From Escherichia coli (lineage in GTDB: Bacteria > Pseudomonadota > Gammaproteobacteria > Enterobacterales > Enterobacteriaceae): a stretch of 64,000 bases of DNA. The notes under the pieces are model-generated. The model did no database searches and was not told the DNA's origin. It saw only the letters and a list, made by a program, of their open reading frames with translations. Within the stretch, counting starts at the first letter, position 1. Each line of letters starts with the position of its first letter. The position numbers and the translations under genes are program-made. Positions 13,459-14,023 of this stretch are shown in pieces. The stretch is taken from assembly GCF_003334305.1 (NCBI RefSeq), contig NZ_QOWS01000001.1; one strand, written 5' to 3'.

Positions 13459-13518
13459 TTCCGCCACTCTGTGCCGGTTTACTGCACCGGCACATTCCCC
13501 CTCCGGCAAAACTTGTCC

Positions 13519-13983
13519 AACCCTCCCTACGGTGAGCGTGGTGTTGGGGCCAGTGTGGCACGGGCTGCGCGCTGGGGACGCATTGAGAATTACATGGCGC
13601 AAGTCAACGATTCGCTTTGTCTGTTAGTGCAGGTGGAAAGTAAAACGGCACTGGATAACCTGGACGAGATCCTCGACGTCGAAGGGATTGATGGCGTGTT
13701 TATTGGACCAGCGGATCTTTCTGCGTCGTTGGGCTACCCGGATAACGCCGGGCACCCGGAAGTGCAGCGAATTATTGAAACCAGCATTCGGCGGATCCGT
13801 GCTGCGGGTAAAGCGGCTGGTTTTCTGGCTGTGGCTCCTGATATGGCGCAGCAATGCCTGGCGTGGTGAGCGAACTTTGTCGCTGTTGGCGTTGACACGA
13901 TGCTCTACAGCGATGCCCTGGATCAACGACTGGCGATGTTTAAATCAGGCAAAAATGGGCCACGCATAAAAGGTAGTTATTGA
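13519..13983 (+). pseudogene. rhmA: 3' remnant of rhmA/yfaU (2-keto-3-deoxy-L-rhamnonate aldolase), 5'-truncated with in-frame TGA
   Basis: Translation [41 protein letters not shown]...QQCLAW matches the C-terminal ~155 residues of the recalled 267-aa HpcH/HpaI-type RhmA; reading frame continues after a TGA at 13867..13869 ([37 protein letters not shown]) to the natural stop. Confidence 0.7.
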
Positions 13984-14023
13984 TATCAAAGGCCCATGGG
14001 GATCGGCTGTGGGCCTGTGTTAA

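Follow-up and report, generated by a model that had tools for sequence, protein, structure and literature searches.

What has become of the L-rhamnonate utilization genes at a site in Escherichia coli where K-12 carries a complete operon? In K-12, the genes yfaX (rhmR), rhmD (yfaW), yfaV (rhmT), and yfaU (rhmA), numbered b2248-b2245, lie between yfaY and rpnE/glpC, and the order in strain MG1655 is yfaY, yfaX, rhmD, yfaV, yfaU, ypaA (a pseudogene), rpnE, and glpC. At the same site in the 64,000-nucleotide stretch of E. coli DNA that was analyzed here (the window), only the 3′ end of yfaU is kept. An initial annotation, made from the sequence alone, had read this site as a deletion scar that lacks rhmR, rhmD, rhmT, and the 5′ part of rhmA, with a nonsense codon in the rhmA remnant. 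Base-level alignments uphold this core reading, and the K-12 annotation confirms that yfaX, rhmD, yfaV, and a full-length yfaU are found between yfaY and the neighboring gene in that strain.

The features of the interval are collected in Table 1. As had been proposed, yfaY is followed by a gap of 565 bp before the next gene, which is borne out by both the list of open reading frames and the sequence itself. Only 63 bp separate the yfaY stop codon from the remnant, whereas intact genomes have 3.9 kb with three genes in this place. Translation of the gap yields the C terminus of an aldolase, which runs through ...QQCLAW, an internal stop at the TGA, and ANFVAVG... to RIKGSY and the natural stop at 13981-13983. 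Because rhmR, rhmD, and rhmT do not adjoin the rhmA remnant, the window does not contain an rhm (yfaXWVU) operon.

Table 1. Features of the interval from yfaY to rpnE, in window coordinates
Feature	Position	Strand	Basis
yfaY (CinA-family / NMN deamidase-related), intact, 400 aa	12256..13458	+	ORF list; syntenic, named yfaY in K-12 and strain A7
Native yfaY 3′ flank, kept left of the deletion	13459..13521	+	Collinear with K-12 L001 2574-2636
Hairpin 3′ of yfaY, 9-bp stem, 7-nt loop, native	13470..13494	+	RNA fold -17.6 kcal/mol, z = -2.6
Deletion junction	13521..13523	.	Three-way alignments to K-12 and 0H26; junction 59-mer
yfaU/rhmA remnant, codons 115-267 plus natural stop	13522..13983	+	Amino acid identity to K-12 YfaU; NF007521 match; PGAP pseudogene note in A7
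Nonsense codon TGA (Gly230; GGA in every other sampled genome)	13867..13869	+	K-12 comparison; 57-mer; 12 other carriers
GC-rich terminator-like hairpin between convergent yfaU and rpnE, native	13990..14016	.	Terminator-like scan; region collinear with K-12 3′ of yfaU
rpnE (yfaD), 300 aa, YpaA-type C-terminal tail; right-hand neighbor, outside the deletion	14024..14926	-	NF007418; rpnE annotation in K-12, A7, and IAI1

The right-hand neighbor had been named rpnB, which is wrong. Synteny with K-12, annotation, and profile score all identify the gene as rpnE (yfaD, b2244). It matches the rpnE equivalog model NF007418 with 702.6 bits, above the cutoff of 583 bits, and scores 427 against the RpnA model (NCBIfam). 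The K-12 rpnE gene is located between yfaU/ypaA and glpC, and in the window glpC and then glpB follow beyond rpnE in the list of open reading frames. At the 3′ end of the gene (14024-14200, minus strand), the last ~25 residues match K-12 YpaA and not K-12 RpnE (GFEREIVLATTQLTDADIPNCH). The window has a single rpnE, whereas K-12 has rpnE and a separate ypaA copy with an extra four-residue KLEG repeat. The ypaA gene has been described as an additional gene for an RpnE antitoxin (rpnE_Ss), which can be lost when it is deleted or when it becomes fused to the N-terminal domain of rpn (PMC10400941), and the YpaA-type tail of the window rpnE agrees with this description.

Relative to K-12, the window lacks 3,864 bp, corresponding to positions 2638-6501 of the K-12 locus (L001) or to NC_000913.3 2358503-2362366. 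The missing segment comprises all of yfaX/rhmR, rhmD, and yfaV/rhmT and the first 342 nt (114 codons) of yfaU. On the left, window positions 13300-13522 align to L001 2415-2637 with 99.1% identity, both by BLAST and in a base-by-base alignment. On the right, the sequence from 13522 onward is collinear with yfaU from codon 115 and is 96.8% identical to K-12. Identical breakpoints are obtained with 0H26 and STS73-1-E, which are intact and more similar to the window than K-12 is. The collinear flanks that meet at 13522, when set against these intact orthologous loci, are those of a deletion pseudogene. Alignment to the K-12 interval had been suggested as a check on the initial annotation; it reveals that the K-12 arrangement differs and that the fragment is homologous to rhmA.

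The two flanks share one base pair at the junction, namely the C at 13522; the left flank reads ACC and the right flank reads ATC here, and these overlap if one mismatch is allowed. The alignments to K-12 and 0H26 reveal no inserted bases, no remnant or end of an insertion sequence (IS), no terminal repeat, and no target duplication at this point. Such a clean junction, with a 1-bp overlap and neither IS ends nor target duplications, is what an illegitimate deletion at the level of microhomology would leave, and we class the event accordingly. A hairpin had also been reported at the junction. This structure is real, but it lies 29 bp upstream of the actual breakpoint. It is present base for base 3′ of yfaY in K-12, 0H26, and STS73-1-E, and it lacks a U-tract and is not terminator-like according to our scan. 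A role for the hairpin as a junction structure or as the cause of the deletion is ruled out by its native presence in K-12 and by its distance from the breakpoint.

The remnant had been described as the C-terminal ~155 codons of an RhmA-like aldolase. It consists of 153 codons plus the natural stop, all in frame. Its start had been placed at NPPYGERG; the fragment is indeed in frame, but homology to yfaU begins with PPYGERG, which is codon 115, and does not include the N. Over its 462 bp, the remnant differs from K-12 at seven nucleotides (~98.5% identity), and its protein sequence is 100% identical to residues 115-267 of K-12 YfaU except at codon 230. The RhmA model NF007521, which has 267 positions, matches the remnant with an E-value of 1.1e-74 and 251.3 bits, and the part before the TGA covers positions 115-229. 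Homology to the family is evident from this match, although the score falls below the 441-bit cutoff for full-length members. With the first 114 codons gone and a TGA at codon 230, there is no uninterrupted reading frame with a start of its own. YfaU belongs with HpaI and GarL to the class II pyruvate aldolases (HpcH/HpaI fold). It is a hexamer of (beta/alpha)8 barrels (PMC8461973), for which structures are available (PDB 2VWS/2VWT). Because the remnant begins only after 43% of the barrel, it would not be expected to fold or function.

The distribution of the deletion was surveyed in 5,426 complete E. coli genomes. A 59-mer that spans the junction (13493-13551) is found exactly in 1,239 of these, and a 1.5-kb scar query is covered to at least 80% in one piece in 1,238. 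Since the same junction is present in 1,239 independent genomes, it is not an assembly artifact. Carriers include the reference commensal IAI1, Shiga-toxigenic (STEC) strains of types O26, O103, O111, O91, and O178:H19, ETEC, and many animal isolates. The operon is intact in K-12, REL606, O157:H7, UTI89, Nissle, and APEC O18. IAI1 and the O26, O103, and O111 STEC belong to phylogroup B1, and our assignment of the deletion to B1 comes from such named strains among the 1,239 carriers. The rhmD gene is present in 3,836 genomes. The sum of 3,836 and 1,239 is smaller than 5,426, which is consistent with there being no second rhmD copy in the carriers. In one carrier, UTME-10, IS2 truncates rpnE (L007 1061-1257).

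The same junction and 462-bp remnant are annotated in RefSeq as a pseudogene, 'aldolase/citrate lyase family protein', in IAI1 (ECIAI1_RS11715) and in the orangutan isolate A7 (AOY58_RS15190). The A7 locus is 100% identical to the window and bears the note 'internal stop; incomplete; missing N-terminus'. Both lesions of the scar are thus already on record in the annotation of A7, and the deletion alone is annotated in more than 1,000 other genomes, IAI1 among them. We found no explicit published account of the scar: Searches that combined rhmD or rhamnonate with phylogroup returned no papers, and the only literature to contain all four yfa gene names was a genome-reduction announcement.

These observations make it very probable that a clade-wide illegitimate deletion was followed by neutral decay that includes the TGA. 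An ancestor of phylogroup B1 would have lost 3,864 bp in a non-homologous event that involved ~1 bp of microhomology, and codon 115 of yfaU/rhmA would thereby have come to adjoin the intergenic DNA 64 bp 3′ of yfaY. The regulator (YfaX/RhmR), dehydratase (RhmD), and transporter (YfaV/RhmT) would all have disappeared in this step, as would the N-terminal 114 codons of the aldolase, and with them the L-rhamnonate pathway. Left over would be a promoterless, N-terminally truncated piece of a (beta/alpha)8 barrel. The scar would subsequently have been inherited, and shuffled by homologous recombination, across ~23% of sequenced E. coli. A later G-to-T change in the dead remnant of A7 or of a near-identical isolate would have created the TGA at codon 230, as neutral decay with no further phenotype. 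The layout of the locus, the junction, its distribution among genomes, and the restriction of the TGA to one of them are direct observations; from these we infer that the deletion arose once, to which class of mechanism it belongs, that the remnant has no function, and that growth on L-rhamnonate is lost. The catabolic defect in the carriers, in particular, is predicted from the absence of rhmD, rhmT, and rhmR.

How far recombination has shaped this history can be judged from the remnant itself. Among 13 carriers, the 462-bp sequence occurs in three haplotypes with seven segregating sites, all of which are synonymous third-codon positions, and 12 of the 13 carry a remnant without decay in that no non-synonymous change is present. 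Seven third positions out of seven would be improbable for changes that arose in a dead gene (~(1/3)^7). Intact K-12 has five of the seven alternative bases and intact 0H26 has one more, so that at least the six variants other than 13749A also occur in intact yfaU alleles. Moreover, the window haplotype around 13605-13626 occurs in the intact yfaU of O157:H7, and the two main haplotypes are combined in a mosaic in the carrier EC9952. The TGA is the only carrier-private change seen among the 13. The pattern is most simply explained by homologous recombination that continues to exchange the remnant, together with its right flank, with functional alleles of other lineages. If the polymorphism was imported in this way, then the synonymous pattern reflects selection elsewhere. 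Purifying selection on the remnant was considered and rejected, given the variants shared with K-12 and 0H26, the haplotype shared with intact O157:H7, and the mosaic carrier.

A more far-reaching version of this idea is that the deletion allele itself was spread and reshuffled among lineages by homologous recombination, and that the intact operon was occasionally restored by the reverse exchange. The identical junction on three different haplotypes and the mosaic structure of EC9952 speak for it, as does 0H26, in which an intact operon is accompanied by a B1-like right flank and by a left flank that has diverged ~2% from the window. We consider this a tentative possibility, and one that complements the main explanation, as a single origin of the deletion is still needed. 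In 0H26 (L008), the RpnE protein of the right flank (WP_000140570.1) is the same as that of IAI1, and GlpB and GlpC are identical to those of A7, whereas 10 of 522 sites in the yfaY flank are different from those of the window (L008 1-4640 vs. 4640-10179). This genome may be a B1-type chromosome whose operon was restored by recombination, or it may represent a lineage that never lost the operon.

The nonsense codon has a quite different distribution from that of the deletion. Its presence in place of a glycine codon (GGA, Gly230, in K-12), with the frame going on to the natural stop, was confirmed. A TGA-centered 57-mer is found exactly in one of the 5,426 complete genomes, which is that of strain A7 (NZ_CP028767.1), and each of the other 5,410 matches has at least one mismatch. 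Position 13867 is a G in all 12 of the other deletion carriers that were retrieved. Accordingly, PGAP notes an 'internal stop' in A7 only, and the other carriers examined, namely IAI1 and 11 more, lack the internal stop of the window and are noted as 'incomplete; missing N-terminus'. The original description of two independent lesions in this lineage is therefore misleading: One is present in 1,239 genomes and the other is private to a single genome. The deletion is old and clade-wide, and the TGA is either much younger or an error.

Could the TGA be an assembly or sequencing error, so that the deletion is the sole lesion? The codon is seen in exactly one of 5,426 assemblies, A7, which is also the only 100% match to the window over the 1.5-kb scar query. 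However, neutral decay likewise predicts a lone private substitution in a pseudogene, and a substitution, as opposed to a homopolymer indel, is not a typical error of long-read sequencing. An error is an improbable explanation on this balance. The TGA is either a private, recent event or possibly a base-call error in an already dead fragment, and in both cases the pathway was lost without any contribution from it.

The B1 deletion is not the only route by which E. coli has lost these genes. The rhmD gene is absent from 1,590 of the 5,426 genomes (29%). The interval from yfaY to yfaU is kept at 80% or more in 3,823 genomes, and the B1 deletion class covers 12% of this query. When the interval was classified in a spread sample (60 rows of 5,411 genomes), two further classes were evident in which an IS200/IS605 element (ISEc46 with TnpB) has replaced or interrupted yfaX and/or rhmD, and yfaV and yfaU survive. 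These alleles are represented by 2021CK-01784 (L020 1316-2957) and F344 (L021 1720-3977), each with ISEc46 tnpA plus TnpB/InsQ; in one, yfaX and rhmD are replaced, and in the other, yfaX is split and rhmD is deleted. Of the 60 rows, ~2 belong to each allele. Although they share with the window the locus and the loss of rhmD, the ISEc46-associated alleles have other breakpoints, an intact yfaU, and an IS200/IS605 element. The window scar, in contrast, has a clean junction free of IS sequence and cuts into yfaU. Counted together with it and with the CUWW06-type arrangement described below, these alleles make up the 1,590 genomes without rhmD. Among them are no fewer than three common lesions of independent origin, and the operon is dispensable and repeatedly lost.

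Rarer arrangements were also encountered. In CUWW06 (L010 1940-2035), no rhm DNA is present, and ~95 bp of unrelated sequence separate yfaY from an rpnE allele with only ~83% identity to the common form. This arrangement resembles a horizontal replacement of the segment more than it does a simple deletion, and we rejected it as a second common deletion class because it is limited to 10 genomes with a divergent haplotype. In 06-00048 (L011 4516-8440), a chaperone-usher fimbrial operon located directly 3′ of yfaY replaces the rhm genes and rpnE. This replacement is unique among the 5,426 genomes and was set aside for that reason. Two other lesions affect yfaV in otherwise intact rhm operons: a frameshift in STS73-1-E (L009 2951-4241), and IS1203, which splits the gene in O157:H7 ATCC 35150 and PNUSAE151637. 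The yfaV alleles are further independent inactivations of the pathway.

The frequency of such rearrangements raises the question of whether the break in the window was made by an IS element or by rpnE, the neighboring gene for a recombination-promoting (Rpn) nuclease. The yfaY-glpC interval is prone to rearrangement, as illustrated by ISEc46 in the two other rhmD-loss alleles, by IS2 in the rpnE gene of UTME-10, and by IS1203 in the yfaV gene of ATCC 35150, and rpnE is only ~500 bp from the right breakpoint. Set against this are the clean meeting of the flanks in all carriers with a 1-bp overlap, which carries none of the marks of an IS element, and the K-12 annotation of RpnE as an inactive nuclease-like protein. 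Proximity alone is no evidence, and we regard this explanation as very unlikely.

Still less probable is that the remnant is selected as a functional truncated protein or RNA. The strictly synonymous polymorphism and the 12 carriers without a non-synonymous change would fit such a role. Furthermore, a GTG at 13471 would open a 170-codon reading frame in carriers that lack the TGA. However, this GTG is within the stem of the hairpin, 43% of the barrel is absent, and the stop at codon 230 is tolerated in the strain of the window. Most likely, the synonymous variants were imported, as at least six of the seven also occur in intact alleles. No promoter-like (sigma-70-like) site was found in 13300-14100, and no Rfam family matches the gap at E ≤ 1. 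These scans gave no sign of expression of the remnant, and a structured RNA or new promoter in the gap was dropped from consideration.

Finally, the notion that the window is ancestral and that K-12-like lineages gained the rhm genes, for which one could cite the 10 CUWW06-type genomes that have no rhm DNA between yfaY and a divergent rpnE, is incompatible with the truncated reading frame and thereby refuted: No insertion could produce half a gene that starts in frame at codon 115 of 267 and encodes a protein 100% identical to the intact C terminus, and, in addition, the left flank of intact genomes runs on into the DNA upstream of yfaX with no target duplication and the operon is intact in 3,823 genomes over several phylogroups.

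Given a clade-wide deletion followed by neutral decay, the scar is an ordinary lineage-specific pseudogene that matters little beyond bookkeeping, and the nonsense codon is a single-genome event of no added consequence. The remnant serves as an example of how a pseudogene may look 'undecayed', with only synonymous polymorphism, when recombination imports variation from functional alleles. The B1 deletion, the two ISEc46-associated deletions, and the rarer lesions all strike the rhm genes, which leads to the speculative reading that loss of the operon is favored in some niches as a convergent, possibly adaptive, pruning, with the junction at 13522 as a single-PCR marker of B1. We think this combination improbable, but the exact junction could be of use as a lineage marker. 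Of more general relevance, about a quarter of sequenced E. coli, including major non-O157 STEC serogroups, lack the coding capacity for L-rhamnonate catabolism, and strain-specific metabolic models and phenotype predictions should account for the loss of this operon.
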